A DNA stretch of 64,000 bases from an uncultured Candidatus Peribacteria bacterium (GTDB lineage Bacteria > Patescibacteriota > Gracilibacteria > Peribacterales > Peribacteraceae), in NCBI GenBank assembly GCA_964603635.1, contig CAZRVH010000001.1, positions 51,386-115,385 of the forward strand. Direction: 5' to 3'. Positions 18,733-64,000 of the stretch are shown here, one piece after another; position 1 is the first letter of the stretch, and every line of letters begins with the position of its first letter. Under the pieces are notes generated by a model. The model made no database searches. It was not told the DNA's origin and saw only the letters and a list, made by a program, of their open reading frames with translations. The position numbers and the translations under genes were made by a program.

Positions 18733-18807
18733 TGGCTCCCCGACTTGGATTCGAACCAAGAACCCTCTCGTTAACAGCGAGATGCTCTACCATTGAGCTA
18801 TCGGGGA
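18733..18807 (-). tRNA. tRNA-Asn (anticodon GTT), CCA encoded
   Basis: Minus strand: TCCCCGA-TA-GCTC-AATGGTA-GAGC-A-TCTCG-CTGTTAA-CGAGA-GGGTT-CTTGG-TTCGAAT-CCAAG-TCGGGGA-G-CCA. All four stems are perfect Watson-Crick. Confidence 0.92.
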
Positions 18808-26096: not shown

Positions 26097-27983
26097 TTAG
26101 GAAAGCTCGGTAGCCGTTTCGATCTCGGCAGGTCCTCCGGATACCACTGCCTTGATGCGGCGCACGCCTGCTGAGCTGCTTTCTTCTTTCTGGATCTTGA
26201 AGCTGCCGAGCATCCCCGTGCGCGCCACATGCGGACCGCCGCAGATCTCCTTGCTGAACACGGGGCCGTCGCCGACCTTTCCCGTGCCCGCGACCTTCGC
26301 GGACGCATCGCCCATTACGTACACCTTCACGTCCGCTGAGCCTGTGCTGAGCGCAGCCGAAGCATAGCGCTCGTCGAACACGCCGATCGCCCCTTCTTCT
26401 TTCGCGCCTTCCACCGTCGACAAGTGATAGCTCACGGGGAGGTCCGCCTTGATCGCCTCGTTCACCAGGTCTTCCGTTTCCTTGATCTGCTCCGGCGTCA
26501 TCTTGTCCGTATGGTTGAAGTCGAAACGCAAACGCTCGGAGGTGATGTTACTTCCTTTTTGCCCGATGTGGTTTCCCAGCACACGGTGCAACGCGGCGTT
26601 GAGCAGGTGCGTGGCGGTGTGCAGCTTGGTCGTTTCCGCGGAGTTGTCCGCGAGTCCGCCTTTGAACTTCTGCTCGGCTCCCGCGCGGCTCTTCGCCTGG
26701 TGTTCCTCGAACGCTTTCTTGAATCCTTCTTCATCCACTTCATAATGTTGTTCCGCTGCCAATTCTTTTGTTAATTCAATCGGGAAACCATATGTGTCGT
26801 ACAGATGGAACGCATCTTGTCCGCTCATTCTTTTATTAGAGAAGCCTGTGGCTAGCATTTTTTCAAACTGCTTCATTCCCTCCTGAAGAGTTTGTACAAA
26901 CTGATTTTCTTCTTTTTTCAAAGTATTTTCGATGTCGGTTTTCCTGAAGGTAAGCTGCGGATAAGCTTCTGCATAACTGCTCATCACCAAGAAAGAAACG
27001 GTGTAAATGAAAGTATCGGAATTAATTCCTAGCGTTCTCATAGAGCGAATTGCACGCCTGATAAGTCTGCGCAAAACATATCCTTGATCAACGTTGGAGG
27101 GATGTACGCCGTCGGCAATCATGAATACCGCAGCTCTCAAGTGATCCGTAATAATTCGCGCATGACGCATTGTTTCAGCGTCTTTCTTTTGGGCATTTTG
27201 CATCACCATTTCAACGATTGATTTCAGAGGTTCCACATCGTACACATTGCTTGCCCCTTGCAGCACCGCGGCCACGCGTTCCAGTCCCATGCCGGTGTCG
27301 ACATTCTTCTGCGCGAGGGGCTCGAACGTACCGTCTTCCTTCTTGTTGTACTGCATGAACACGTCGTTCCAGATTTCCATCCAGTTCGGATCGTCGTTCG
27401 CGGGGTTGCTGCGCGGAGGCGGCAATTCCGACGGGCCGACCCAGTAGAACATTTCCGTATCCGGTCCGCAGGGCCCCGTCTGTCCGGCGGGTCCCCACCA
27501 GTTCTTCGCCTTGGGCAAAAACCCGATGCGTTCGCGCGGCACGCCCAGGCTCTCCCACACCGCGGCGGATTCCTCGTCCCTCGGCGCATCCGCGTCTCCT
27601 TCGAAACACGTCACCGCGAATTTCTCCAGCGGGATCTCCAATACCTTGATGAGGAACTCGAAGCTGAATTCGATCGCTTCCTTCTTGAAGTAATCGCCCA
27701 GCGACCAGTTGCCGAGCATCTCGAACATCGTGAGGTGCGTGGAGTCTCCCACTTCGTCGATGTCCCCCGTGCGCACGCAGCGCTGGACGTCCGCGAGGCG
27801 CGTGCCCTGCGGGTGCTTCTCGCCCATGAGATAGGGGACGAGCGGGTGCATCCCCGCCGTCGTGAAGAGCACGGTCGGGTCGTTCTCCGGCACCAGCGGC
27901 GCACCCGGGATGATCGCGTGGCCCTTCGACTGGAAGAAGTCGAGGTAGGATTGGCGGAGTTGGTCCGTGGTGAGGTTTTTCAT
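26097..27983 (-). CDS. alaS: alanine--tRNA ligase (short form, no C-Ala domain)
   Basis: 'LFTTAGMHPLVPY', 'FEMLGNWSLGDYFK', and editing-domain motifs 'HTATHLL' and 'CGGPHV'. The protein ends shortly after 'GVRRIKAVV' at 628 aa. Confidence 0.95.
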   Translation of the reverse strand: MKNLTTDQLRQSYLDFFQSKGHAIIPGAPLVPENDPTVLFTTAGMHPLVPYLMGEKHPQGTRLADVQRCVRTGDIDEVGDSTHLTMFEMLGNWSLGDYFKKEAIEFSFEFLIKVLEIPLEKFAVTCFEGDADAPRDEESAAVWESLGVPRERIGFLPKAKNWWGPAGQTGPCGPDTEMFYWVGPSELPPPRSNPANDDPNWMEIWNDVFMQYNKKEDGTFEPLAQKNVDTGMGLERVAAVLQGASNVYDVEPLKSIVEMVMQNAQKKDAETMRHARIITDHLRAAVFMIADGVHPSNVDQGYVLRRLIRRAIRSMRTLGINSDTFIYTVSFLVMSSYAEAYPQLTFRKTDIENTLKKEENQFVQTLQEGMKQFEKMLATGFSNKRMSGQDAFHLYDTYGFPIELTKELAAEQHYEVDEEGFKKAFEEHQAKSRAGAEQKFKGGLADNSAETTKLHTATHLLNAALHRVLGNHIGQKGSNITSERLRFDFNHTDKMTPEQIKETEDLVNEAIKADLPVSYHLSTVEGAKEEGAIGVFDERYASAALSTGSADVKVYVMGDASAKVAGTGKVGDGPVFSKEICGGPHVARTGMLGSFKIQKEESSSAGVRRIKAVVSGGPAEIETATELS

Positions 27984-31249: not shown

Positions 31250-31658
31250 GGGGATGACAGGTTTCGACAGCGTGAATACGTTGGATGCTTTGCTTCGATC
31301 CGGGATGGCAACGGTTCCCGATACCCACTTGTTGCAACCATAGATGCAAAAACATCTGTACGCACGCTCGGCGCACGCTTCCAGTCTGCTCTCGCGAGCA
31401 TGACCCCGGCATACGCTTTCGCTGCTTAAGTTTCCCTTTACCGGAAACGCGTCTTACCCTCGATCCTCGCTGAAGGGATAAGGCGTCACTAGCGAGGTTG
31501 GCCTCCGACTGATGTGACGGTCCGCCCGAATTCAGCATCAATCCTCACTCCCTTTCTTTGTTCCTATCTTAGGGGATGCGTTGTAACGAAAGGTTCATGA
31601 TCGTACGGGCAGCATTCATCCACGTTGGACCCGGGTTCGACTCCCGGCATCTCCACCA
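31250..31658 (+). ncRNA. ssrA: tmRNA (transfer-messenger RNA)
   Basis: 5' 'GGGGATGACAGGTTTCGACAGCG'. 3' tRNA-like end 'GGACCCGGGTTCGACTCCCGGCATCTCCACCA'; acceptor GGGGATG pairs with CATCTCC. The internal tag ORF from GCA 31346 ends '...MTPAYAFAA' plus TAA (31427-31429). Confidence 0.92.
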
Positions 31659-37959: not shown

Positions 37960-40740
37960 ATGAATCATATAGAGCATGCGGACGCTCCGGTCACCCCCGA
38001 AAAACCTGTGAATGCGGGGCTGAACCCGGAAGAAAGCAGGGCATATGCAGCCGCGCTTAATCAGATCCTGACGGCCACGAATCTGGAAATCATTCCATTC
38101 GGAGCACAGAACGAACCGTTGCGCCTTTCGCAATGCGAAGGGCTCGAGGCACTGCGAGATAGCGTCCGCCAAAACGAGAGTCTTTCCCACATCATTCAAC
38201 CGGGAGGCACGGGAAAAACGCGCGAAGGGATTGCGGCTGCGTACGCAATGCATCGTCTGGGAAACGACAGCCTTTATGTCGTTCCGTCGCAGCAGGCGGT
38301 GACGGATTTCGCTGGAAAAGCGAGAAGTCTGTGTCCCGATATGGATGTCGGCGTCGTGTACCAATCCGAGAAACGGATCGGCAGGCTGACATTCATTACC
38401 TATGCATCACTCTTGCGATGCATGCTGGGAAAAAGCGCGGAAGCGGAAGCGCAGGTATTCGAGGAAAAGGAAGAGCCGGATGTGGCGCATGCTGACAAGC
38501 AAAAAATCGTCATCGATCCTGGGCGGTACAGGCTTGTCATCTGGGACGAAGCGCACAAATACCTCACCGTGACAGCGCAGCGCTTGCTGGAACTTTTTAA
38601 CAGAAGCATCAACGTCGGTTTTACAGCGACGCCGCGATATTACGAAGGCAAAGAAGTCGCAATCGTATTCGGTAGGAAAATCCATGAGCTCAATTTGGAG
38701 ACCGCCATCGAAAGAAAGGAAATTTCGGATTTCCGAAACATCCTTATTACGACCGACGTCGTAACGGGTCTGGAGCTTGTCTCCCCGGAACAGGAAGAAA
38801 GCGCCCAAGTCGCGAAAGCGATCAATGTGGCGACTCGCAACAATATCTTCCCCGGTCTCTACAAAGATGCCAGGATCACGGTGAGTGGGAAGGAATACAC
38901 GTTGCTAGGAGAGCCGACGCTGGCCTTCTGCGCGAGCATCGAACACGTTCACGATCTCGCCAAAAGATTCAACGATACGCTTTTGCCCGCGCTGAAAGAG
39001 GACGAGGAATTCCGTTCCATCCTGCGCGCAAAGGGAATCGACCCCGATGCCGTGGAGCAAATCGCGGCGCCCATTCATACAGGCAGCAGTGGCGAACATG
39101 CGGGGATGAGTCTTCAGGAACGAAACGCATTGGTGGAACGCTATCATGCGAGAAAGATCCTTGTTCTCGTCTCTACGTCCGTCTTGCAACAGTCTTTCGA
39201 TAGCCAAATGACATCCGTTGTCATCGACACGGTGCCCAGGCAGACGTATGTCGGAGTGGGACAGGCGGGAATGCGGGCGCTTCGTTTTTTGCCCGGCAAG
39301 GAAATTGCGTTCCTCATCAATACCCAGGATGCCGACCATCGCTCCCTCACCTTCCTCGATTTCCAGGCAAGGCGCGGCGCCGAAGAAGGCATCGCCATCG
39401 AACTCGCCCATGCGGCTGGACAGGTAAGCCAAAGTGCGCCTTCGAGCGAGAAGGAAAAAGTGATAGGCAAGAAAAATCAGACGTCGGCGTATAAGCTGAC
39501 ATACGGAATGGAGTTGATGGATCTCTCCCAGAAGAGGTTTTCCGTCGAACACATGTACTACATGCCGGAAACGTCTTCCATGCATTTCCATTTCAACTCC
39601 GCGGGTTTCCAAAGGTTGAACAGGTTGATTCTCGATATCGCGGGCGGCGATAAGGAAGCGGTCTTCGCTTTCATTGATCTTTTGCAGATTTGGATCGGCC
39701 GCATTACCCGCCACGTCGGATTCCAGGAATTCGGCGATGAGAGCTTTGAAGAGGCGGTTGTCGAAAAGTTGGATGACATCGCGTTCGAGGCATTGATGGA
39801 TCTGGTGGAAAAAGTGCAATCGGGCGCGATTGAAACATGGTCCAGGTTCTCCGCCCGTTTTCAACAGGACTTCCGTCGTTTCTGCAGGGTCGCGAAGCGC
39901 GATGAGGTTCCGTCCATCGACATCCATCTTCACGAGCCCATTGAAAACGAGCATATGCAAGGCACCTTGGATGAGGATGACGCATTCAGTTCAACGGAAC
40001 CCCTTTTCATCGACCTGCATGAAACCATTCCGTCATCCGATAGTACCGGGGTTGAATTCGCGGAGAACGCAGAGCTGCGCGGTAAAATGTACAAAGTACT
40101 TCGATCACTCAGTTATCGCGAGAGGGAAATCTTAAAACTGCGATACGGATTGGAAGACGGATATTCCTATACCCTTGAAGAAGTAGCTCATATTTTCAAG
40201 GTAACGAGAGATAGGATCCGGCAAATAGAAGCGAAAGCGATCCGGAAATTACAAATGCCTTCGCGGACCAGCGAGCTCTCAGGTTTCTTTGCCGATAAGA
40301 CGAACAAAGGATACGCCCTGTTGCCGGAGCCCCAGTCATTGCCGAAAAGGGAAAAGGGAGTGCTCGATGAGGCGTACGTCGAGCAGGGTAAGAAGAACAG
40401 GGAAATCATCGTCGATCTTCTCTCGCCGCTCATCGCCGCAAAGAAAACCATATTCGATGTCTTGCGAGGAAATGATGAAGAAATCCCTTTGTGGATTCTC
40501 AATGAACTCGGAGCCATCTCTCCGGATTTGGAAGCTGTGTGCAGTGTCGAGCGCACGTATAGCGACGCGCTTATGGCAACGGTCTTTGATCAGCATGTGT
40601 TGGCCCGTTTCAAGCAGAAGTTGATAGGATTGAGGGTATCTGACCGCGATAGGGCTGCAGTCGATGAGGCAATCCATAGATTGCAAACGTGCATGCTGCG
40701 CTTCCAGGATATGGGAGGAAAGTCGCTCCGTGAGATGTAA
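37960..40740 (+). CDS. SF2 DEAH-box helicase fused to an RpoD-type sigma-70 region 4 domain
   Basis: Helicase motifs: I 'PGGTGKTR', II 'VIWDEAHKY', III 'GFTATPR', V/VI 'LVLVSTSVLQQSFD..QAGMRALR'. Residues ~700-765, 'LRSLSYREREILKLRYGLEDGYSYTLEEVAHIFKVTRDRIRQIEAKAIRKLQMP', are a near-canonical sigma-70 region 4.1/4.2. Confidence 0.85.
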   Translation: MNHIEHADAPVTPEKPVNAGLNPEESRAYAAALNQILTATNLEIIPFGAQNEPLRLSQCEGLEALRDSVRQNESLSHIIQPGGTGKTREGIAAAYAMHRLGNDSLYVVPSQQAVTDFAGKARSLCPDMDVGVVYQSEKRIGRLTFITYASLLRCMLGKSAEAEAQVFEEKEEPDVAHADKQKIVIDPGRYRLVIWDEAHKYLTVTAQRLLELFNRSINVGFTATPRYYEGKEVAIVFGRKIHELNLETAIERKEISDFRNILITTDVVTGLELVSPEQEESAQVAKAINVATRNNIFPGLYKDARITVSGKEYTLLGEPTLAFCASIEHVHDLAKRFNDTLLPALKEDEEFRSILRAKGIDPDAVEQIAAPIHTGSSGEHAGMSLQERNALVERYHARKILVLVSTSVLQQSFDSQMTSVVIDTVPRQTYVGVGQAGMRALRFLPGKEIAFLINTQDADHRSLTFLDFQARRGAEEGIAIELAHAAGQVSQSAPSSEKEKVIGKKNQTSAYKLTYGMELMDLSQKRFSVEHMYYMPETSSMHFHFNSAGFQRLNRLILDIAGGDKEAVFAFIDLLQIWIGRITRHVGFQEFGDESFEEAVVEKLDDIAFEALMDLVEKVQSGAIETWSRFSARFQQDFRRFCRVAKRDEVPSIDIHLHEPIENEHMQGTLDEDDAFSSTEPLFIDLHETIPSSDSTGVEFAENAELRGKMYKVLRSLSYREREILKLRYGLEDGYSYTLEEVAHIFKVTRDRIRQIEAKAIRKLQMPSRTSELSGFFADKTNKGYALLPEPQSLPKREKGVLDEAYVEQGKKNREIIVDLLSPLIAAKKTIFDVLRGNDEEIPLWILNELGAISPDLEAVCSVERTYSDALMATVFDQHVLARFKQKLIGLRVSDRDRAAVDEAIHRLQTCMLRFQDMGGKSLREM

Positions 40741-48946: not shown

Positions 48947-49591
48947 ATGCCAATGCCATACCTCATCCTCGCACGGCACGGCGAAACGGAGATCAACATC
49001 CGCAACCGCGTCGAACGCGTCTACTACGGCCGACAGGAATCCCCGCTCACGCAACTGGGTCGGGAACAGGCGGGCATGCTAGGCAGGGAGCTGGCGGCGC
49101 GCACGGATATCCGCTTGCGATTCGTCGCATCCTCCAATATCGGACGGGCCTTGGAGACGGCTCGTCTTTCGTTGCGCGAACTGTTGGATCCGCCCGAGAT
49201 CGTCCCCTGCGCCGATCTTACGGCACGGTCGCTGGGCATTTTCGAGGGTATGACACGCGACGAGGTGGAGCGCTCGCACCCGGCGTACATCCATGACCCG
49301 CGTCTCAACGGATTCGACAGCGACTTCTATAAGCGCGCGCCGGGAGGGGAGAACCTGTCAGACGTGACCCGACGGGCGTGGTCCGCCGTGGAGTGGGTAC
49401 GGGAACGCACCAATGGGGACATCCTGCTCGTGACGCACGCGACCGTCGTGCGGTGTCTGCTTGGTGCCATCCTCGGAATGCCGGCGGCGGACATCCCGAC
49501 GCTCAAAATACCAAACGCATCGCCGGTGTATCTGCGTCTGACAGGTGATGGGTACGAATCGCAGGATCTGCTTTCCCGTTTACACGCATGA
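48947..49591 (+). CDS. histidine phosphatase (phosphoglycerate mutase-like) family protein
   Basis: 'LILARHGETEIN' (RHG motif), 'ASSNIGRALETA' and 'LLVTHATVVRCL'. Confidence 0.85.
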   Translation: MPMPYLILARHGETEINIRNRVERVYYGRQESPLTQLGREQAGMLGRELAARTDIRLRFVASSNIGRALETARLSLRELLDPPEIVPCADLTARSLGIFEGMTRDEVERSHPAYIHDPRLNGFDSDFYKRAPGGENLSDVTRRAWSAVEWVRERTNGDILLVTHATVVRCLLGAILGMPAADIPTLKIPNASPVYLRLTGDGYESQDLLSRLHA

Positions 49592-50238
49592 ATCGCGTCA
49601 TCCTCCTCCGACACGGCGAATCCGAGTGGAATCTGCCTTGTTCGCCCGCGGAACGGAAGTTTACCGGTCGGTTCGACATTCCCCTGACGCAAAACGGACG
49701 CCTCCAAGCAGGCCTGGCAGCGGAAGAAATGAAGAGGTTGGAATGTTCTATTGATCACATAATGTGTTCAATCTTGGATCGTGCCCGCGAGACGTGCTCC
49801 CTGGTTGTCGCACGCATGGATCTCAATCTTCCCGTTCTGCATACGGATGCCTTGAGCGAGCGGTCGCTGGGTGTATTCGAAGGCCGATTCGTCGAAGACG
49901 TTTTTCATAAGTACCCCGAGTATCGCCCCATATCGTTCGCAAACGATTTTCTGCTCAAGGCTCCCGGCGGCGAAAGCCTGTCCGACGTGACGGACCGTGC
50001 GTGGCCTTTGTGGGAGCGGCTTGAGGAGATGCCTGGCCGGGACGCTCTCATCGTGTCCCACGCCGTCACCATCCGGTGCCTGCTTGGGAAAGCGCTCGGA
50101 TTGTCCAAAGAAGACACCAAGGCGATCCACGTCCCCAATGCGACGCCGGTGATCGTATCGGCTCGTCCTCCGCGGTCACTCTTGTACCCCGCTTTCATTC
50201 CGCACGCTTCCTTACCTCCTTCCACTTCCGTTCTATGA
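49588..50238 (+). CDS. histidine phosphatase family protein (second copy)
   Basis: 'VILLRHGESEWN', 'CSILDRARETC' and 'LIVSHAVTIRCL'. The start overlaps the upstream stop. Confidence 0.85.
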   Translation: MNRVILLRHGESEWNLPCSPAERKFTGRFDIPLTQNGRLQAGLAAEEMKRLECSIDHIMCSILDRARETCSLVVARMDLNLPVLHTDALSERSLGVFEGRFVEDVFHKYPEYRPISFANDFLLKAPGGESLSDVTDRAWPLWERLEEMPGRDALIVSHAVTIRCLLGKALGLSKEDTKAIHVPNATPVIVSARPPRSLLYPAFIPHASLPPSTSVL

Positions 50239-51068
50239 TGCGCATGCATGATATGCCACCGGTTACCGCCGTCCTGTTCGCGGGCGGCAAGGGCACGCGC
50301 CTGCACAGCGTCACCCAGGGCCGAGTGCCCAAGAGTTTCGTGCCGATTGACGAGGATTCCGGTCTTCGCGCGATCGATTACGCCTTCGACGCCCTGCGCA
50401 GGGGCGGCATCGAAAGGATCGTCATTGCCACCACCGCGCAGATGCGCGCAATGTTCGAGCCTTTTGAGAAGGATGATGTCTTCATCCACTGCGATCGTCC
50501 CGACGGGGCCGGTACCTACGACGCCCTGTTGGACGTGCGCAAAAAAGAGGGCGATCTTTCGCAGTATTTGCTGCTCGCGCAGGATAATCTTTTCCATGCC
50601 GATGATATAGCGGCGCTGCGTCGCAGGCATCAGGGCGGTACCGCGACGTGGGCCGTGGGCGGATTTGTTCCCGGGATGGATTCCTATGCCGGCATCTACG
50701 TGGACTCATTGTCGTCCGAGATCATCGGGGATACGAAGTCGGAGGTACCGCCGCCGTTCTCCGCCCTATCCGTTCGCGAATACGTCCGAAGCAATATCCT
50801 CATGATTGATCCGTCGCTTCTGGATAAGCCACGCGAAAGTTTCCAAGGCCGGTCTCACAAGCAGGGCGAAGTGGATGTGTATTGGGATTTCCTGCCCGAA
50901 CTCCTGAGGGACAGCCTCAATGGCATGCGCGAAGGAAGAGCCGCGCTCCTCCGGGCGTCGGTATGTTCGTTTCCCATCGTGGACTTCGGCCGTCCGGAGC
51001 GACTTGCAACCGCACGGGAAATCTATAAAACGACATATATGCCTCCCCCTACCCCCTCTTCCCTATGA
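50235..51068 (+). CDS. sugar-phosphate nucleotidyltransferase family protein
   Basis: 'AVLFAGGKGTRLHSVTQGRVPKSFVPI' (GGxGTRL motif). ATGA overlap with the upstream gene. Confidence 0.8.
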   Translation: MMRMHDMPPVTAVLFAGGKGTRLHSVTQGRVPKSFVPIDEDSGLRAIDYAFDALRRGGIERIVIATTAQMRAMFEPFEKDDVFIHCDRPDGAGTYDALLDVRKKEGDLSQYLLLAQDNLFHADDIAALRRRHQGGTATWAVGGFVPGMDSYAGIYVDSLSSEIIGDTKSEVPPPFSALSVREYVRSNILMIDPSLLDKPRESFQGRSHKQGEVDVYWDFLPELLRDSLNGMREGRAALLRASVCSFPIVDFGRPERLATAREIYKTTYMPPPTPSSL

Positions 51069-51610
51069 TGGATATTCTCTCGACGCGCACGGTGTATGAA
51101 GATCCCTGGATGAAGTTGACGATGGAAGCCGTGCGTACGGATACGGGAAAGGAGTTCGATTACCTTATCTCCCATCCGCGCGCATTCGTCGTGGTGGTTC
51201 CGTTCCTCTCCGCCGAGGAACTCCTGATGATCCGCCATTACAAGCATGGCATCCGCCGCGAACTCATCATGTTCCCGGCGGGATACATCGAGGATGGCGA
51301 AGAGCCCGCGGTTGCCGCGGCCCGGGAGTTGCAGGAGGAAACCGGTCGGACGGCGGCAGAGCTGAAACACGTCGCGACCTTGTCCCAGAATCCCTCGCGC
51401 AGCCGTTCGATGTTTCACATCTTTACGGCCCACGGGCTTTCCGAATCCAGCGGGGAAGACAATGCCGATACCCAGGAGGGGAATGTGCGTACGGAACCCG
51501 TGGAAATCCTCCGCCTCCTCGATCCTTCTTTCTGCAACGAAATCGCCGACGGCAATATGCTGGCCGCAGTGCCATTCATCCTCGCGGAACGCGAAGGTAC
51601 CTATGCCTGA
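51065..51610 (+). CDS. NUDIX hydrolase (ADP-ribose/NDP-sugar pyrophosphatase-like)
   Basis: NUDIX box 'GYIEDGEEPAVAAARELQEETG'. The N-terminal 'VYEDPWMKL' is typical of the ADPRase-like subgroup. Confidence 0.85.
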   Translation: MMDILSTRTVYEDPWMKLTMEAVRTDTGKEFDYLISHPRAFVVVVPFLSAEELLMIRHYKHGIRRELIMFPAGYIEDGEEPAVAAARELQEETGRTAAELKHVATLSQNPSRSRSMFHIFTAHGLSESSGEDNADTQEGNVRTEPVEILRLLDPSFCNEIADGNMLAAVPFILAEREGTYA

Positions 51611-56830: not shown

Positions 56831-57235
56831 TCACAGCGTATGCTTGAAAAACAGGTTCGCGATGCCGAGGATGGCCGCGACGATCATCCAGCTCACGAAC
56901 CCGTCCGTGATCTGCAATTTTACGAGCGAGGGATCCATTTGTGAGGTGATGCGGACGACGAGCCACACGAAGGCCGCATTGGACAGTATCAACGCGAGCA
57001 AGGTGGCGAAGAGCTTGAGCGGGAATGTCAGTACATGCAGGATGGGACGCGCGATGAGGTTGAGCAGGGTCACGAGACAGCCGACGATGACGAACGCCGC
57101 CCATCCGCCGCTTATCGTAAAGTACTGCGGGATGAGCGTATTCATCGCCCACACGAGAAGAATCGTGAGGACCGCGCTAAAAAGAATGCGCAAGGGGAGT
57201 CCCAAGGAAGACGTTTCGTTGGCAGACATGGGCAA
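56831..57235 (-). CDS. DUF360 / phage-holin-4-like 4-TM membrane protein
   Basis: 'VGCLVTLLNLIARPILHVLTFPLKLFATLLALILSNAAFVWLV' fits the DUF360 pattern. It starts immediately after the ileS stop. Confidence 0.6.
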   Translation of the reverse strand: MPMSANETSSLGLPLRILFSAVLTILLVWAMNTLIPQYFTISGGWAAFVIVGCLVTLLNLIARPILHVLTFPLKLFATLLALILSNAAFVWLVVRITSQMDPSLVKLQITDGFVSWMIVAAILGIANLFFKHTL

Positions 57236-60200
57236 TCAGGGGAGGTACACGTCCATCATAACGTCCTCCCCGATCAGAATCGATTGCTTCGTTCCCGTGG
57301 GCGGGCCGAAACGCACGCTCGTCTGCTGGGTGATGGCATCCTCGAATCCTTCGATCAGCGCCTTCAGGTCGTCGCCGATACCGATCGTCACTTCGTCGCC
57401 CATCTTGTATCCGGCTTCCTTGCGGATCTTTTGGATTTGGCGGATGACGTCGCGTACGAGACCCTTCTTCTGCAGGTCTTCGGTGATTGCCGTATCCACC
57501 CTCACCACCACGCCGTGATCCGCCGCTACGCCCTGTCCCTCCTCGGCCTGGTAGGCGATCGACACTTCATCGGGTGACAGGCGCTCGCCGTCGATGACGA
57601 TCGTTCCGTCCGGTTCCTCGGTGAAATCGCCGGTCTTTCCTTTTTGGATCACCTGCTGCACGCGGCCGCCCAGGCGGGGGCCCACCTTGCGTGCGTCCAC
57701 CTTCGCGATCTTCTGCACCCCGCCGCTGTCGTTGCTGAACTCGATGCTCTCCACGTTCATTTCCTCGCGGAGCAGCGCGATGTCATCTTCTCCGAGCCCG
57801 ATCTTCTTCGCGTCCATGGTTCCCGGCAGCGTCACGGTCGCGACCGCCAGGGGCTGGCGCACCTTGATCTTCTGTTCCGAGCGGATCTTGTTGCCGAGCG
57901 ACACGATGAGGCGCAGCGCGCGGTTCTTCTCGATCGACACGCGGTCCGCCTTGGATAGTTCCGCGGTCGCGGGCCAGTCCGTCAGGTGGATGGAGCCGTT
58001 CTTCTCCGGCACGAGGTTCAGGTAGATGTTTTCCGTGATGTAGGGGCAGAACGGCGCCAGCAGCTTGCAGACGTCGATCAGGACGCCGTACAGGGTGGCG
58101 AGCGCTTCACGCTGCTCTTCGGTGCTGCCGCCTGCCTCCGTGTCTTCCATGCCCGACTTTCCGGCAAAGCGGCGCCGGGAAAGACGGATGTACCAGTTGG
58201 TCAGCGCGTCCAACGTATCGACGATCTCCGCGCAGGTTCCGGCGAGGTCGTATGCGTCCATCTTCTTCGTGACGCGGTTCACCAGGTCCTGCGTTTCGGC
58301 TTTGATCCACCGGTCCAACGGATGGTTGGACGCATGCGGGGCGGCGACGGGTTCGAAATTCGCCATGTTGGCGTACGTGACGAAGAACGAATACGAGTTC
58401 CACAGCGGCAGCAGGACGCTGCGCAGCGTCTCCTCCACCACCTTCTCCGAGAAGCGCATGTCTTCGGCACGGACCGCGGGGGAATTCATGAGTGTGAAAC
58501 GCAGGGCGTCGGCGCCGTACTTGTCGATGACGATGTTCAGTTCTGGGTAGTTCTTCAGGCGCTTGCTCATCTTGCGGCCGTCCTCGGCCAGGATCGTTCC
58601 GTTCACGACGACGTTCTTGAACGCGGGCTGCTTGAAGAGTGCCGCGCTGAGGACGGTGAGCGTGTAGAACCAGCCGCGCGTTTGGTCGATGCCTTCCGCG
58701 ATGAAGTCCGCGGGGAAGTTCGTAGGCTCCAGCTGTTTCTTGCTTCCGCGGGGCGCGAGCTTCAAGTGCTGCGCGTCGTATGGGAAATGCTGTTGGGCGT
58801 AGGGCATGGAGCCGCTTTCGAACCAGCAATCCAGTACGTCGGGGATGCGCTTGAGGACGGGCTTCAGCGAGATTTCCATCGAGTCCCCGTTATTCACGGG
58901 CACTGCCGCCACCGCCTTGAACGCAAGGTTCTCGGCGATACCCTTGAGGCCCAGCATCGTGCCGCGGTGGGAGACGACAAGCACTTTCTTTCCTTTGTAA
59001 TGCTCGCGAAGGATGGCGCATGCTTTTTCCAGTCGGGAATTGAAAGAGGACAAAGATTCCCCTCCTTCCGGCGTCGCATAATGAAAGGAAGGACACAGCC
59101 CCTTCGGTTCCTCCGGGAATTTTTCCCATAGGCTGTCGATCGTATTTCCGCTCCAGCTGCCCGCATCGCGCTCTTTCAATTCTTCCATCTCTATGACTTC
59201 CGTGACGCCGAGTTCTTTCGCGATGATCCGTGCGGTTTCCATGCTGCGCTTCAGGGGGGACGCGATGATGGCGTCGAACGTGCGGCCCTTCAGGGCTTTG
59301 GCTTGCTCAGATGCCTGCGATCTGCCGGTGTCGTTCAGTTCGGCATCGATATTTCCTCCTTGGAGCAATTTTTTCTTATTATTGTCCGTCTCCCCGTGGC
59401 GTACGAGCGTCAGATGTACGATGGGGTCTTCCTCGGTAGCGGGCCATTCCACGTCATCGATCACGTGCTTGTGCAGGTCGATCTCCCCTTCGCGGTTGTG
59501 GTCCCAGAAATACGCGACGGGGGTCGCATACGGCGGATTGGGCTGGTAGCAGAGCTTCGCTGGATCTTCTTTCGTGAAGAGATGGCGCACCACCATGGAA
59601 GGATCGCCGTGCGTCACGAGCACGATATGTTCGCTGCGGTGCCTGGGGAGGGTCTTCTTTAGGAAGGACGAGAGGCGTTCGTACATCTCGGGCCAGCGCT
59701 CCATGCCGTCGAAGCGTTCGTTGGTGTCCACTTCTTCCTTTCCGATGAAGTGGATGCGACGCGCCTCCGTCATGGCCCGGTCGGATCGGTCGAAGGTCTT
59801 TCCTTCGTGCGGTCCGAATTTCGTTTCCGCCAATTCCTCCGCGATGATGATCTCCGCGCCCGTTTCCTTCGCGATCTGTTCCGCGGTTTGGATGGCTCGG
59901 GCAAGCGGGGAGCAGTAGATGATCGACACCTCCTCCTGTTTCAGGATCGCGGCGGCTTCCTTCGCCTGTTTCACGCCGTTCTTCGTCAAGTCGGTCCCCG
60001 GAGCAGCCCCTTGGTGCAGGTGGCGGAGATTTCCTTCGCTCTCGCCGTGGCGCACGACGCTCACCTTCGTGAAACGCATGGGCTTTTTCTCCATCAGCGC
60101 GTCGCGTCCTCCGAGCACTTCAACATGCTTTCCGTCCTGGGTGCGCCAGATCGGAAGGGGCGTACCCCAGAAGCGGCTGCGGGAAATGGCCCAGTCGCGC

Positions 60201-61564
60201 GCGCCTTCCAGCCACTTGCCGAAGCGCCCGTCGCGCAAATGGGCGGGCAACCATTCGGTTTCCCCGTTCACTTTCAAAAGGTCGTCCTTGAAGTCCTCTA
60301 CCTTCACGAACCATGAAGAGGTGGCGTAATTGAGCAGCGGTGAGTCGCAGCGCCAGCAGTGCGGATAGCTGTGGCGGTAGGATTCCTTCTTGAAGAGGAG
60401 TCCTTTTCCTTCCAACCACGCGATCACCTTCTGGTCGGTCTTGGTGGGGTCGTCCTTCGGTTTCACCTCCATGCCCGCGAAGTCCGTCACGGCCGGGACG
60501 AAGTGTCCGTCCATGCCGACGTGCTGGAGCATCGGGACTTTTTCGCGCTTGCCCACCTTGAAGTCGTCGTCGCCGAATCCCGGCGCGATGTGCACGATGC
60601 CCGTACCGTCTTCCGTCGTCACGAAGTCGCCCGTCACCACGCGGTAGGCGGTTCCCTCGAAGCCTTCCTTGAAATAGGGGAACAACGGTTCGTAGCTCAT
60701 CGCGACGAGTTCTTTCTGGCTTACCACAGGGCCGATCTGGAATTCCTTCCCGTCGAATACCTTCTCCACGAGGGCTTTGGCCATGATGTATTCCGCACCC
60801 TCGCAGGATACCGTCACATAGTCGGTATCCGGGTGGATCGCCAGGAACAGGTTGCCGGGCAGGGTCCAGGGGGTCGTCGTCCAGGCGAGGATGAACGTGT
60901 CTTTCTTTCCCTTCACGGGGAACTTCACGAAGGCACTGATGTCGGTGATGTCTTTGTAGCCCTGCGTGACCTCGAAGTTGCTCAGCGGGGTGACGCAGCG
61001 GGGGCAGATCTGCATCGGTTTGTAGCCTTCGTAGATGAGGCCTTTCAGGAAGAGCGCGCGAAACACCCACCAGATGCTTTCCATATAGTCGCTGTCCATG
61101 GTGCGGTAGTCGTGCTTCATGTCGACCCAGCGGCCCATGCGCGTCACCGTTTTTTCCCATTCGCCGGTATAACGCTGGACGACGGCGCGGCAATGTTCGT
61201 TAAAGGTCGCGATGCCCATCGCTTCTATGTCCTTGCGGCTCTTCAGGTCGAATTCCTTCTCGATTTCATATTCCACGGGGAGGCCATGGCAATCCCATCC
61301 GAAACGGCGCTGTACCTGGTTCCCCTTCATCGTCTGATAGCGGGGGATCACGTCCTTGATCGTTCCTCCCACCATGTGCCCGTAGTGGGGGAGTCCCGTC
61401 GCGAACGGGGGTCCGTCGTAAAAACTGAACGTGTCGCATCCTTCGCGCAGCTGGATGCTGCGGCGGAACATGTCCTGCTCCTTCCAGTACTTCAGGATGC
61501 CCTCCTCCAGGGACGGAAAATGCTGTTTCGGATCGACGGGATCGAACATGGGGGGAGTGTACAC
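57236..61564 (-). CDS. ileS: isoleucine--tRNA ligase (type 2) with two inserted histidine-phosphatase domains
   Basis: HIGH 'PHYGHMVG'. 'DWAISRSRFWGTPLPIW', 'DVLDCWFESGSMPYAQ' and KMSKS 'RKMSKRL'. The 1442-aa length is explained by two RHGE-type domains at residues ~497-690 and ~714-903. Confidence 0.95.
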   Translation of the reverse strand: MYTPPMFDPVDPKQHFPSLEEGILKYWKEQDMFRRSIQLREGCDTFSFYDGPPFATGLPHYGHMVGGTIKDVIPRYQTMKGNQVQRRFGWDCHGLPVEYEIEKEFDLKSRKDIEAMGIATFNEHCRAVVQRYTGEWEKTVTRMGRWVDMKHDYRTMDSDYMESIWWVFRALFLKGLIYEGYKPMQICPRCVTPLSNFEVTQGYKDITDISAFVKFPVKGKKDTFILAWTTTPWTLPGNLFLAIHPDTDYVTVSCEGAEYIMAKALVEKVFDGKEFQIGPVVSQKELVAMSYEPLFPYFKEGFEGTAYRVVTGDFVTTEDGTGIVHIAPGFGDDDFKVGKREKVPMLQHVGMDGHFVPAVTDFAGMEVKPKDDPTKTDQKVIAWLEGKGLLFKKESYRHSYPHCWRCDSPLLNYATSSWFVKVEDFKDDLLKVNGETEWLPAHLRDGRFGKWLEGARDWAISRSRFWGTPLPIWRTQDGKHVEVLGGRDALMEKKPMRFTKVSVVRHGESEGNLRHLHQGAAPGTDLTKNGVKQAKEAAAILKQEEVSIIYCSPLARAIQTAEQIAKETGAEIIIAEELAETKFGPHEGKTFDRSDRAMTEARRIHFIGKEEVDTNERFDGMERWPEMYERLSSFLKKTLPRHRSEHIVLVTHGDPSMVVRHLFTKEDPAKLCYQPNPPYATPVAYFWDHNREGEIDLHKHVIDDVEWPATEEDPIVHLTLVRHGETDNNKKKLLQGGNIDAELNDTGRSQASEQAKALKGRTFDAIIASPLKRSMETARIIAKELGVTEVIEMEELKERDAGSWSGNTIDSLWEKFPEEPKGLCPSFHYATPEGGESLSSFNSRLEKACAILREHYKGKKVLVVSHRGTMLGLKGIAENLAFKAVAAVPVNNGDSMEISLKPVLKRIPDVLDCWFESGSMPYAQQHFPYDAQHLKLAPRGSKKQLEPTNFPADFIAEGIDQTRGWFYTLTVLSAALFKQPAFKNVVVNGTILAEDGRKMSKRLKNYPELNIVIDKYGADALRFTLMNSPAVRAEDMRFSEKVVEETLRSVLLPLWNSYSFFVTYANMANFEPVAAPHASNHPLDRWIKAETQDLVNRVTKKMDAYDLAGTCAEIVDTLDALTNWYIRLSRRRFAGKSGMEDTEAGGSTEEQREALATLYGVLIDVCKLLAPFCPYITENIYLNLVPEKNGSIHLTDWPATAELSKADRVSIEKNRALRLIVSLGNKIRSEQKIKVRQPLAVATVTLPGTMDAKKIGLGEDDIALLREEMNVESIEFSNDSGGVQKIAKVDARKVGPRLGGRVQQVIQKGKTGDFTEEPDGTIVIDGERLSPDEVSIAYQAEEGQGVAADHGVVVRVDTAITEDLQKKGLVRDVIRQIQKIRKEAGYKMGDEVTIGIGDDLKALIEGFEDAITQQTSVRFGPPTGTKQSILIGEDVMMDVYLP

Positions 61565-61602: not shown

Positions 61603-62625
61603 TCAGCTTTCACGGGACATCTCCCCCGCGGTGTTTTTGGCGAACATGTCGGCGATTTCTCCCGGATCGCGTGTTTGGCCGAGGATCCATTTGAGTTTCA
61701 CGTAGGCGGATTCCGGCGTCATGTCACCCGTCGGCAACACCCCAAGCTCCACCACCTTTCGTCCCACATCGTACAGGTACATGCGCGTGGTGCCGTAGAT
61801 GCACTGCGTGGAGATGACCACCGGGATGTTTTTTTTCTGCGCCTTGCGGATACTGGGGAGCAGGGAATTTTCCTCGGACGGCAGGTTGCCGGGTCCGAAT
61901 GATTCCAGGATGAGGCCGTCTATGCCTTGGGCGATGATGGCATCGATTGTTTTCGGCGAGAGCCCCGGCGTGCACTTCACGGCGACCACGTCCCCGTTGA
62001 ACGAATTCTGTACCGACAGTTCCCCGCTGTGGCGGTGGCGGACATTCGGATACGTCAGCTCGGGTTGCAGGCGGATGGATCCAAGATCCGGGAAGACGGG
62101 CGAGATGAACGCGTTACGCTCGCTTTCGCTTACTTTCATGCTTCGGTTTCCGCGCAGGATCTTGGTGCCGAAGACGATGCACACCTCCGCCAGATCCATC
62201 GTCGCCACCTGGCACGCATTCACGAGGTTGGTCAACGCGTCGCTTCCCAAAATCTCCGAAGGGACCTGCGACCCCGTCAGGACCACGGGCTTGCCGAGGT
62301 TCAGAAGCGCGAAGGAAAGAGCGGACGCGGTATACGCCATGGTGTCCGTGCCGTGCGTGACCACGAAGCCGTCGAAATTGTGATAATCCTTCCGGATTGC
62401 GTTCGCGATCTTCACCCAGTGGGATGGCTGCATATTCGTACTATCGATGTTCGTGATGGTCTTCGCGGTGATTTCAAACTCATCCCTCAGGCGCTTTTCC
62501 TGGTTCAAAAGGTCCGCCGCCGTGAGCTGCGGTTTCAGTGCCGAGGTGTGCACATCCTGTCTCATGCCGATGGTTCCGCCGCAATAAAGCAGGAGGAGGG
62601 ATGGTTTGCGTAGCTTGGACGTCAT
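61603..62625 (-). CDS. ansA: type I L-asparaginase
   Basis: 'LLLYCGGTIGM', 'VVTHGTDTMAYTASALSF' and 'PVVLTGSQ'. Confidence 0.85.
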   Translation of the reverse strand: MTSKLRKPSLLLLYCGGTIGMRQDVHTSALKPQLTAADLLNQEKRLRDEFEITAKTITNIDSTNMQPSHWVKIANAIRKDYHNFDGFVVTHGTDTMAYTASALSFALLNLGKPVVLTGSQVPSEILGSDALTNLVNACQVATMDLAEVCIVFGTKILRGNRSMKVSESERNAFISPVFPDLGSIRLQPELTYPNVRHRHSGELSVQNSFNGDVVAVKCTPGLSPKTIDAIIAQGIDGLILESFGPGNLPSEENSLLPSIRKAQKKNIPVVISTQCIYGTTRMYLYDVGRKVVELGVLPTGDMTPESAYVKLKWILGQTRDPGEIADMFAKNTAGEMSRES

Positions 62626-64000
62626 TGTGGGGTGATGCGGAAAATATGCGAAACGTAGGGGAGGCCGAAGAGGTACTCGTATGCGATCTGAAGCGGGCGC
62701 AACCGATCCGTGTTGAATCCCAATGTGATGGAAGACGGTTCGAATTTCAACAATTTCACGGGTGTCGTGAGAAGGCTTTGCAATTCGGAAATGGCCTCGA
62801 GGGGATTGGCGCCTTTCGCGTAGGAAAACCGGAAAGCGAAATGCATCGGGTAGCCGAGCAGTTCCTTCTGCACCAGGAGCGGCACGAATTCCTTCGAGAA
62901 GCGTTTTTCGTGCGCGGGTGCGTCCGCAGAAATGACTTCCATGATATCCGGTCCCGCCTGCAGTCCGATGATATTTCCCGATTGCAACTCGCCCATCTCG
63001 GTACGCAGCACGAAACGCATCGTCGAGGCACGCATCAACCCGGACATGCCGTGGAAAACGGCGGGATCAAGAAGGAGGAAGTCTTCCGGCATGCTGTGTT
63101 CCTCGATATGCTGGAAGGGATTGACGACGCCCGTCCCGATGTTCGCCAGCTCCGCTTGTTCGCCGTCTATCCTCTCTCGTACGGATTTTTGCCAGGTGAT
63201 GCTGAAGAAAGGATCCATCGCGATATCTACCGTGCGGTGGAGAAGGTCTTTTCCGCGGCGTATCTGTTCGCGCTTTGGCAGCGAGGCAAGACCGGAAAAG
63301 AGAAGGTTTTCAGCGAAGGATGTCCGCAGGAACCTGACGTCGGTCGCCGACCGCGCGAACTCCTTGCTTTGGTGGATCCGTACGATATCTCCTGCCTTCA
63401 CGGCATCCGTGAGCGCCACGGGCAAGCCGTTGACGGAAGCCGACACCGCGTGTTTTCCGGTCGATTCGCCGGCATAATAGGCAAGGTCCAAGACCGTCGC
63501 CTCCGAGGGAATGTCGATATCCCTCTTTTTTTCGTTGAGCACCACCGAAACACGGTTGCGATCCCCGAATATCTCGTTTTGGACGCTCGAGAAAAAGGCA
63601 TACAGATCATGTTCGTCGCGCTCCAGGGATACCAGGGTTTCCACCCATCCCGGCATCATCGTTGATTTCTTTGCCCCGTTTTTTTCCTGATACAGCATGG
63701 CCATGCCGTATTGCGCTCGCCTCGCCATGGAGGCGGTCTGGATGATGATGTCCACGGGATGGCCGGCTGACGTGAACACCGTCGTATGCAGCGCCTGGTA
63801 CCCGTTCATTTTCGGGGATGCGATATAGTCGTCTATCTGCTGCGGCAAGGGGGGCGAGAAATCATGGACGTCTCCCATGCATGAATAGCAGTCCCCGCCG
63901 TCCGGAATGCGTATGTGGACCCTGTGAAACGTCTCCACGTTGCGCAGTTGGGAGTCGCTGAGCTTGTGCTCCTTATAGATAGAATGGAAATGTCTTTTTG
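62622..64000 (-). CDS. RelA/SpoT-family (p)ppGpp synthetase, C-terminal part (5' end outside window)
   Basis: 'SPKMNGYQALHTTVFTSAGHPVDIIIQT' (synthetase domain). TGS-like 'IDIPSEATVLDLAYYAGESTGKHAVSASVNGLPVALTDAVKAGDIVRI'. The ORF stays open to the window edge. The stop overlaps the asparaginase start. Confidence 0.85.
   Translation of the reverse strand, partial: KRHFHSIYKEHKLSDSQLRNVETFHRVHIRIPDGGDCYSCMGDVHDFSPPLPQQIDDYIASPKMNGYQALHTTVFTSAGHPVDIIIQTASMARRAQYGMAMLYQEKNGAKKSTMMPGWVETLVSLERDEHDLYAFFSSVQNEIFGDRNRVSVVLNEKKRDIDIPSEATVLDLAYYAGESTGKHAVSASVNGLPVALTDAVKAGDIVRIHQSKEFARSATDVRFLRTSFAENLLFSGLASLPKREQIRRGKDLLHRTVDIAMDPFFSITWQKSVRERIDGEQAELANIGTGVVNPFQHIEEHSMPEDFLLLDPAVFHGMSGLMRASTMRFVLRTEMGELQSGNIIGLQAGPDIMEVISADAPAHEKRFSKEFVPLLVQKELLGYPMHFAFRFSYAKGANPLEAISELQSLLTTPVKLLKFEPSSITLGFNTDRLRPLQIAYEYLFGLPYVSHIFRITPQ

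Follow-up and report, generated by a model that had tools for sequence, protein, structure and literature searches.

In a 64,000-nucleotide stretch of DNA from an uncultured Candidatus Peribacteria bacterium (assembly GCA_964603635.1, contig CAZRVH010000001.1, forward-strand positions 51,386 to 115,385; hereafter the window), the gene ileS encodes a type-2 isoleucyl-tRNA synthetase (IleRS) that carries two complete histidine-phosphatase domains (His_Phos_1) nested within its body. The gene is one unbroken open reading frame (ORF) at 57236..61564 on the minus strand, with a product of 1442 amino acids (aa), and was identified from the ORF, Pfam, NCBIfam and alignment with Protein Data Bank (PDB) chains. 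The nested-domain architecture is genuine, old and under purifying selection. On balance, we read the protein as a bifunctional enzyme, in which the CP3 module of the synthetase probably supports two branch-1 histidine phosphatases, both catalytically competent, that would act as a paired phosphomonoesterase module. An original prediction, made from the letters of the window alone, had described two complete RHG-type domains in an otherwise intact type-2 IleRS. Domain scans, alignment with insert-free enzymes, independent metagenome-assembled genomes (MAGs), selection and a structure model all bear this out.

The host is recognizable as an IleRS throughout its length. Pfam recovered tRNA-synt_1 in two halves (E 2.6e-129), together with Anticodon_1 and DUF5915, and matched His_Phos_1 to two stretches of the same product (E 2.7e-81, 272.3 bits versus a cut-off of 21.7). 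Its interruption notwithstanding, the protein scored 859.6 bits with the NCBIfam ileS equivalog model TIGR00392, whose cut-off is 621.4, and thus belongs to that family. Both class I signatures are in place, as the original prediction had stated. A motif scan located the HIGH signature as HYGH (aa 60-63; 61376..61387, on the minus strand like every ileS feature given below) and the KMSKS signature as KMSKR (aa 998-1002; 58559..58573), which lies in the segment between insert 2 and Anticodon_1 (58316..58849, delimited by Pfam, PDB alignment and motif scan). The CP1 editing domain has its Thr-rich motif WTTTPWT (aa 228-234; 60863..60883, from the motif scan and PDB matches) and a second motif, GTGIVHIAPGFGDDD, at aa 320-334, and it matches the solved IleRS editing domains 1wk8, 1wny and 1ue0. 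Pfam further delimited the Anticodon_1 anticodon-binding domain (aa 1084-1242; 57839..58315) and the DUF5915 domain usual at the C-terminus of type-2 IleRS (aa 1264-1415; 57320..57775).

The assignment to the type-2 lineage is clear from the PDB comparison: eukaryotic, Thermus and IleRS2 chains matched at E values of 1e-204 to 1e-235, whereas the type-1 enzyme of S. aureus matched at 1e-94. The presence of DUF5915 instead of the bacterial C-terminal Zn domain likewise fits type 2 and not type 1. Canonical type-2 enzymes (T. thermophilus 1ILE, C. albicans 6LDK, human cytosolic 9W01 and P. megaterium IleRS2 8C8U) were the top PDB sequence matches, with E values down to 2.7e-235. They share its domain order and similarly possess the HIGH and KMSKS signatures and the CP1 editing, anticodon-binding and C-terminal DUF5915-type domains. 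The window protein differs from them in being about 385 aa longer, with two whole enzyme domains within CP3, and in having lost the zinc ligands found in Thermus and in insert-free IleRSs from the Candidate Phyla Radiation (CPR). The product is presumably competent in aminoacylation and editing, for which a ratio of nonsynonymous to synonymous substitution rates (dN/dS) of 0.04-0.05 in the core offers indirect support.

We set the borders of the inserts by aligning the window IleRS with IleRS ORFs of related loci, insert-free ones included. The N-terminal CP3 segment WGTPLPIW...KKPMR (aa 466-497; 60074..60169) corresponds in this alignment to the former Zn knuckle 1, whose Cys ligands are lost. 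It is followed by insert 1 at site A (aa 498-692; 59489..60073; R505, H506, N512, R556, E580 and H652). Next comes the 22-aa canonical CP3 linker GEIDLHKHVIDDVEWPATEEDP (aa 693-714; 59423..59488), also identified by alignment and, as had been predicted, the only canonical segment between the two domains. Insert 2 then occupies site B, the former Zn knuckle 2 (aa 715-905; 58850..59422; R722, H723, N729, R773, E798 and H866). Domain envelopes obtained with our own hidden Markov models span aa 498-686 and 715-908, with RHG motifs at aa 505-507 and 722-724; residues 652 and 866 are the second catalytic His of the respective domains. In the IleRS ORF alignment, insert 1 is flanked by 'GxRDxLMxKxxxR' and 'DLHK', and insert 2 by 'DLHKxxVDxVxW' and 'RIPDVLDCWFESG'.

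In the alignment with human IleRS, query aa 9-492 correspond to residues 5-490 and query aa 902-1395 to residues 516-1013. About 410 residues therefore stand where the canonical enzyme has about 25, an excess of about 385; the original prediction had put type-2 enzymes at roughly 400 aa below the 1442-aa product. The block originally delimited at 58856-60076 (aa ~497-903) is the inserted block. It had been described as inserted in the catalytic core; the site is instead the peripheral CP3, at the Zn-knuckle positions. The paper on the Candida IleRS structure describes CP3 as a variable module that has a zinc motif in Thermus and none in Candida or S. aureus. Sequence alignment thus places the inserts in a peripheral, evolutionarily plastic element between the two Rossmann-fold halves, outside the active-site core proper.

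The zinc ligands themselves were compared in loci L016-L018, L020, L056 and L080, these labels denoting related loci. A CxxC...CxxC pattern occupies the knuckle positions in CPR IleRSs with insert A only (L016-L018) and in most insert-free ones. All four Cys ligands are absent from the insert-bearing Peribacteria clade, in which insert 2 occupies precisely the second-knuckle position, and the second knuckle is also lost in L080, an insert-free Gracilibacteria locus. An extra stretch of about 15 residues rich in Pro, Ser and Gln, SPQPLPQSSPLKGRG, occurs in the IleRS of the Peribacteria locus L014 just before site A, in the knuckle-1 region, and is further evidence of a permissive CP3 loop. We also considered an intein and rejected it, in line with the original prediction. 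The Pfam scan of the ileS product revealed no Hint or intein family, and the insert junctions (KKPMR/FTKV, WDHNRE/GEID, EEDP/IVHL and KPVLK/RIPD) are devoid of Cys, Ser or Thr splice nucleophiles.

Both inserts belong to the histidine-phosphatase family PF00300: the profile threshold was passed twice, the catalytic core is full and the fold is the alpha/beta fold of the family. Searched individually, each insert had as its best sequence matches the small branch-1 phosphatases PspA (4ij5), PhoE (1h2e) and CobC. An AlphaFold2 model of aa 470-930, built from a 138-sequence alignment, reached a predicted local distance difference test score (pLDDT) of 91.8 and a predicted template modelling score (pTM) of 0.90, the latter possibly inflated by free tandem proteins in the alignment. 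Foldseek matched this model with a probability of 1.00 and a target template modelling (TM) score of up to 0.81, its top matches being PspA 4ij5, Rv3214, HFP 9mmh, Rv2419c and PhoE. No solved chain found by Foldseek covers both domains (query TM ~0.36). The model suggests that the CP3 strands and both phosphatase domains form one compact unit. Single-sequence AlphaFold modelling of aa 1-1200 yielded a pLDDT of 33 and was unusable. Overall, the small branch-1 phosphatases (PspA 4IJ5, PhoE 1H2E, CobC 6E4B/6NRU, Rv3214, Rv2419c GpgP and the riboflavin-pathway HFP 9MMH) share with the inserts the fold (target TM 0.73-0.81), the size of about 190 aa and the catalytic residues. They differ in that the inserts are only 24-30% identical to them, and in that the known enzymes are free-standing whereas the inserts are nested in another enzyme.

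Several narrower assignments were tried and rejected by comparison with the NCBIfam cut-offs. Scores of the inserts for phosphoglycerate mutase, whose models also cover the mutase-specific regions, were at best 90 and 68 with dPGM_arch (cut-off 225) and 41 and 44 with pgm_1 (cut-off 81.7). With the CobC alpha-ribazole phosphatase model TIGR03162 inserts 1 and 2 scored 81.0 and 115.2, versus a cut-off of 162.9; the whole-protein score of 185.7 is no evidence of membership, because it is summed over two domains. The PspA phosphoserine phosphatase model NF045917 gave 79 and 97 against 350, and the SixA model TIGR00249 gave 38 against 74.5. The size of about 190 aa also indicates the short phosphatase type and not a mutase. 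Since no subfamily cut-off was reached, we describe the inserts as generic, apparently active histidine phosphatases and not as phosphoglycerate mutases. The earlier term "PGAM-like", taken as membership in cofactor-dependent phosphoglycerate mutase (dPGM), fails at the dPGM cut-offs. Conservation in the embedded domains was limited to the universal catalytic set and to I549 and F634, two positions conserved in site-A inserts only. The embedded domains are near neutral, with a median isoelectric point (pI) of about 6.7, and slightly more basic than the free ones.

The double insert recurs in orthologs, which we collected by scanning species-representative genomes. Its junction region is complete in L001-L009 and L012 and partial in L013, all of them Candidatus Peribacteria MAGs from several independent studies. 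Identity to the window over this region was 92% in L001 and 41-49% in L002-L009 and L012, and these matches identify the window itself as Peribacteria (CPR/Patescibacteria) DNA. Altogether, the same double insert was found in at least 12 independent Peribacteria MAGs, and the same junctions in many metagenome assemblies. An assembly chimera at 58.8-60.1 kb, which the original prediction had itself named as a possible undoing, is excluded because independent MAGs share the full double-insert junctions.

These orthologs also reveal constraint on the inserts. Identity to the window was 70-75% in the catalytic core, 42-53% in insert 1 and 32-47% in insert 2, these insert values resembling that of the C-terminal domain; over all orthologs the inserts ranged from 25 to 53%. 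Fourteen catalytic positions (the Arg, nucleophile His, Gly, Asn, second Arg, proton-donor Glu and second His of both domains) are unchanged in the orthologs, with the sole exception of an R-to-L replacement in insert 2 of L012. The same universal catalytic set recurred in 46 inserts at site A and 19 at site B. For the window compared with L001, dN/dS was 0.058 for insert 1 and 0.075 for insert 2, compared with 0.039-0.051 for the core. The suggestion that the domains could be catalytically dead scaffolds is disfavoured, since the catalytic residues of both inserts are, L012 excepted, invariant across orthologs.

The survey of IleRS architectures in relatives that had been proposed from the outset showed that the phenomenon is not confined to one configuration. 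We searched 1.84 billion cluster representatives with HMMER, obtaining 30,889 matches at E <= 1e-3 and 4560 at E <= 1e-10, and classified the best 150 representatives of 50%-identity clusters. IleRS hosted the phosphatase in 79 of them, with one to four His_Phos domains each: one domain in 66 clusters, two in 11, three in a single cluster (P0134, the P labels denoting representatives) and four in another (P0133, in which Pfam reports four His_Phos_1 stretches). Free tandem di-His_Phos proteins made up 45 clusters and free single-domain proteins 26. No long host protein other than IleRS appeared among the best 150, an exclusivity that is partly biased by the IleRS flanks included in the query.

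The inserts occupy at least four host sites, given here in window numbering. Site A (~aa 497) is the commonest by far and site B lies at ~714. Site C (~943-949) is the loop after WFESG and before FPADFIxEGxDQ, and site D (~1071-1085) lies between the catalytic and anticodon-binding domains. The combinations AB, AD, CD and BCD were found; site D is used in P0131, P0136, P0193, P0208 and P0237, and site C in P0134 and P0208. Pfam bore out the sites independently: in P0131, for example, the domain order is tRNA-synt_1, His_Phos_1, tRNA-synt_1, His_Phos_1, Anticodon_1, DUF5915, and in P0237 an unbroken catalytic domain is followed by His_Phos_1 and then Anticodon_1. We also observed, at L081:1932-6191, an IleRS of another, apparently CPR, lineage with a His_Phos domain at another position.

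In a neighbour-joining (NJ) tree of IleRS cores from which the inserts had been removed, insert-bearing enzymes grouped with CPR/Patescibacteria IleRSs, interspersed with insert-free ones. Peribacteria with insert 1 only (L010, L011, L014 and L015) nested among those with the double insert. This tree carries no support values and is indicative only, as is the CPR placement of the multi-site representatives, which rests on it. In an NJ tree of the phosphatase domains, site-A inserts formed one broad group with site-C inserts nested within it, the Peribacteria site-B inserts had a clade of their own, placed among single-domain free proteins, and the site-D group fell elsewhere. The separation of A, B and D suggests more than one capture. 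Bootstrapping of a smaller NJ tree united all its insert-2 copies in one clade (97%), the Peribacteria insert-1 copies in another (100%), and all insert-1 copies, including those of Gracilibacteria and other Patescibacteria, at 67%. In their first 93 residues, inserts 1 and 2 share 42% identity.

How would such a protein work? According to the bifunctional reading, CP3, a hairpin of variable form that makes up a zinc ribbon in relatives, became a platform for two phosphatase domains. His_Phos proteins are typically dimers, as in PspA/PspB. The two embedded domains would correspondingly form an intramolecular pseudo-dimer, as the usual quaternary state of the family, the frequent pairing of inserts within one IleRS (AB, AD, CD and BCD), the free tandem proteins and the adjacent gene pair described below lead us to infer. 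The free tandem di-His_Phos proteins (~405-435 aa) and heterodimers of the PspA/PspB type also comprise two His_Phos units acting as a pair; unlike in the free tandem proteins, the units in IleRS stand apart, with host sequence between them, and are anchored in the host protein. The target that the paired domains hydrolyse may be a phosphomonoester carried by a small molecule or by a nucleotide. Selection would then act on physical linkage and 1:1 co-expression with IleRS, rather than on a precise channel into the aminoacylation site. That linkage and not fixed geometry is selected is suggested by the variation of the host loop, which can be CP3, the loop after WFESG or the junction of the catalytic and anticodon-binding domains.

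Several points weigh against this reading. Neither insert reached a curated subfamily cut-off in NCBIfam (dPGM, CobC, PspA, GpmB or SixA), which bears on the substrate class. No pocket residues specific to the embedded domains were found. The pTM of the model is open to the inflation mentioned above. Lastly, repeated insertion into IleRS is hard to explain by co-expression alone and could reflect a direct role in IleRS chemistry or on tRNA-Ile.

Such a direct role, in which the phosphatases act on the IleRS reaction or on its tRNA, is the chief rival; we consider it rather unlikely, although the apparent restriction to IleRS makes it attractive. In one variant, tRNA-Ile 3' ends that damage or toxin modification has left with a 3'-phosphate or pyrophosphate might be healed by the domains ahead of charging. 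In another, they might hydrolyse a nucleotide product or inhibitor at the synthetic site, such as AMP or a phosphorylated adenylate analogue. The idea gains from the repeated insertion of one domain family into IleRS, with no other long host among the best 150, although the IleRS flanks that seeded the search temper that exclusivity. Retention of every catalytic residue speaks for it as well, as does the precedent of NF005567, a nucleic-acid enzyme fused to a CobC-like His_Phos domain. Two free tandem relatives adjoin tRNA-linked genes (tRNA-synt_1b and fmt), and embedded domains have a slightly more basic character than free ones, although near neutral and not strongly basic. Against it, the scattered insertion sites speak against one fixed orientation to the acceptor end, free relatives have, in their largest clade, a sugar-metabolism context, and no free His_Phos gene stands beside ileS in 60 insert-free loci. 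It is conceivable, and to our minds somewhat doubtful, that CPR bacteria repeatedly built a second activity into IleRS, namely a paired phosphatase directed at the tRNA-Ile 3' end or at an adenylate or nucleotide species. If true, this tRNA- or adenylate-directed function would constitute a new class of synthetase-integrated repair or detoxification activity, and not a passenger enzyme.

Less probable again is that the inserts are regulatory or structural modules for which catalysis is secondary, replacing the zinc ribbon, promoting IleRS oligomerisation, or sensing a phosphometabolite or alarmone and tuning the synthetase allosterically. The exact position of insert 2 at the former Zn knuckle 2 and the loss of all four Cys ligands in insert-bearing Peribacteria are in keeping with this, as are the typically dimeric state of the family, the conserved RelA/SpoT neighbour and the tolerance of R to L in insert 2 of L012. 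However, site-A inserts coexist with an intact CxxC...CxxC in L016-L018, so that the insert is not simply a zinc-ribbon substitute, and insert-free relatives without Zn ligands exist (L080). Moreover, both Arg residues, the proton-donor Glu and the nucleophile His have stayed invariant over deep divergence, as expected for catalysis and not for a scaffold, and the RelA/SpoT synteny is independent of insert state. Finally, an artefact or degenerate gene (a chimeric assembly, a fusion from gene calling, a mobile insertion of intein type or a defunct ileS paralog with a canonical backup) is highly improbable: the slightly lower G+C content of insert 2 than of its flanks (0.54-0.58 versus 0.60-0.64) is outweighed by the single open frame, the junctions shared by numerous metagenome assemblies and no fewer than 12 independent MAGs, the lack of a Hint domain and of splice-junction residues, the core dN/dS of 0.04-0.05 with intact motifs and an equivalog-level TIGR00392 score and, as weak evidence, the fact that the 62 insert-free loci retained all come from other MAGs than the insert-bearing loci.

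That aminoacyl-tRNA synthetases acquire accessory domains is known, as is the unusual translation apparatus of the CPR, a very large uncultured section of the bacterial tree. To our knowledge, it is rare for the catalytic body of a bacterial synthetase to enclose complete and apparently active enzymes. Judging from literature searches and NCBIfam release 20, we rate the presence of His_Phos in IleRS as new and a synthetase with an accreted domain as known: the literature searches returned no description of a His_Phos-bearing IleRS, and release 20 holds no model for one. Two curated families offer partial parallels. In the bifunctional RNase H/CobC-like acid phosphatase (Rv2228c type, NF005567), a nucleic-acid enzyme is joined covalently to a His_Phos_1 domain of the same subgroup. 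That fusion is end to end, with another partner enzyme and one phosphatase domain, whereas the window protein has two nested domains. NF005567 was among the top NCBIfam matches of both inserts, at scores of 83 and 114 that lie far below its cut-off of 326. In NF040702 ('ileS_w_GNAT'), IleRS is already curated as the host of an extra catalytic domain, an N-acetyltransferase; here the guest is GNAT, and the window protein scored 286 against a cut-off of 1999.

Recurrence (at least four sites, one to four copies, 79 clusters), catalytic retention and core-like selection are together the signature of a selected functional coupling. Recurrence and constraint thereby imply a coupling that has gone unrecognised and is testable, and they raise the question of which phosphoester an IleRS must have removed. 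The proteins also show, in a form useful for engineering, where a class I synthetase naturally tolerates domain insertions. They carry a warning for annotation too, since public annotations label fragments of such genes 'PhoE', 'DUF5915 domain-containing' protein or plain IleRS. Homology searching with a C-terminal query returned only fragments shorter than 600 aa, insert 1 alone returned two weak free-standing matches, and a 123-aa junction query returned no match.

Free-standing relatives of the inserts occur in the window itself. The original prediction had pointed to two free paralogs about 8 kb from ileS. They exist, 7-8 kb away on the plus strand, at 48947..49591 (214 aa; His_Phos_1 by Pfam and alignment) and 49588..50238 (216 aa), the start of the second overlapping the stop of the first by 4 nt. 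They are not the recent source of the inserts: they are 40% identical to each other and 27-30% to the inserts, compared with 42% between the N-terminal halves of inserts 1 and 2. The first paralog has Ala at the proton-donor Glu position (LTARSLG versus LSERSLG), which recalls an active/inactive heterodimer, and the overlapping pair resembles a split tandem di-His_Phos protein. NTP_transferase and NUDIX genes follow the pair at 50076-51068 (+) and 51065-51610 (+).

The genomic contexts of free tandem di-His_Phos genes elsewhere are mixed and so allow no clean transfer of function to the IleRS inserts. In the largest clade, represented by four members, the order is H+-pyrophosphatase, tandem His_Phos, an almost abutting GT4 glycosyltransferase and then topoisomerase I (context loci L084, L087, L089, L090 and L091). 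Such an order suggests that a sugar-phosphate phosphatase is paired here with a glycosyltransferase. Two tRNA-linked neighbourhoods, which are anecdotal, were also seen. In one, a tandem His_Phos gene and a 109-aa His_Phos fragment lie directly upstream of tRNA-synt_1b, a class Ib synthetase gene (L082:2081-4890 and L083:2009-4818). In the other, on the contig of P0146, a tandem His_Phos gene overlaps the end of fmt, which encodes methionyl-tRNA formyltransferase.

Two neighbours of ileS are kept across Peribacteria whatever the insert state. A gene for a 134-aa predicted membrane protein (56831..57235, minus strand) begins directly after the ileS stop and is found directly downstream of ileS in at least ten Peribacteria loci. 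Upstream lies a RelA/SpoT gene with a TGS domain (62622..63938, minus strand; Pfam), whose frame runs past the window end. Its place in the same gene string had been noticed from the start and stands; because it is also present where insert 2 is absent, it reflects lineage synteny and offers no evidence of a functional link. Its orthologs in related loci are full-length long RelA/SpoT homologue (RSH) proteins. Those at L008:216-2993, L009:552-3332 and L011:3-2957 have about 930-985 aa with an HD, a synthetase-like and a TGS domain, and a long hydrophobic C-terminal region resembling a multi-pass membrane segment, which is unusual for long RSH proteins. The L005 and L015 orthologs, located on the opposite strand, have about 650-675 aa and are devoid of the hydrophobic tail. 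In the window, a type I asparaginase-like gene (Asparaginase and Asparaginase_C, 340 aa; 61603-62625, minus strand) separates the RelA/SpoT gene from ileS; unlike the other neighbours, it was not found beside ileS in related loci.

Further afield, no tRNA-Ile gene was found near ileS within the 64 kb of the window. Its tRNA-like genes comprise a tmRNA at 31250-31658 (+), with the tag AKTSVRTLGARFQSALASMTPAYAFAA, and a tRNA-Asn(GTT) at 18733-18807 (-), and no others. An alanyl-tRNA synthetase gene at 26097-27983 (-) encodes 628 aa with tRNA-synt_2c and tRNA_SAD, apparently lacking the usual C-terminal C-Ala domain. A gene at 37960-40740 (+) encodes a 926-aa protein with a ResIII/SWI2-SNF2 helicase N-terminus and a Sigma-70 region 4 domain (aa 713-765).

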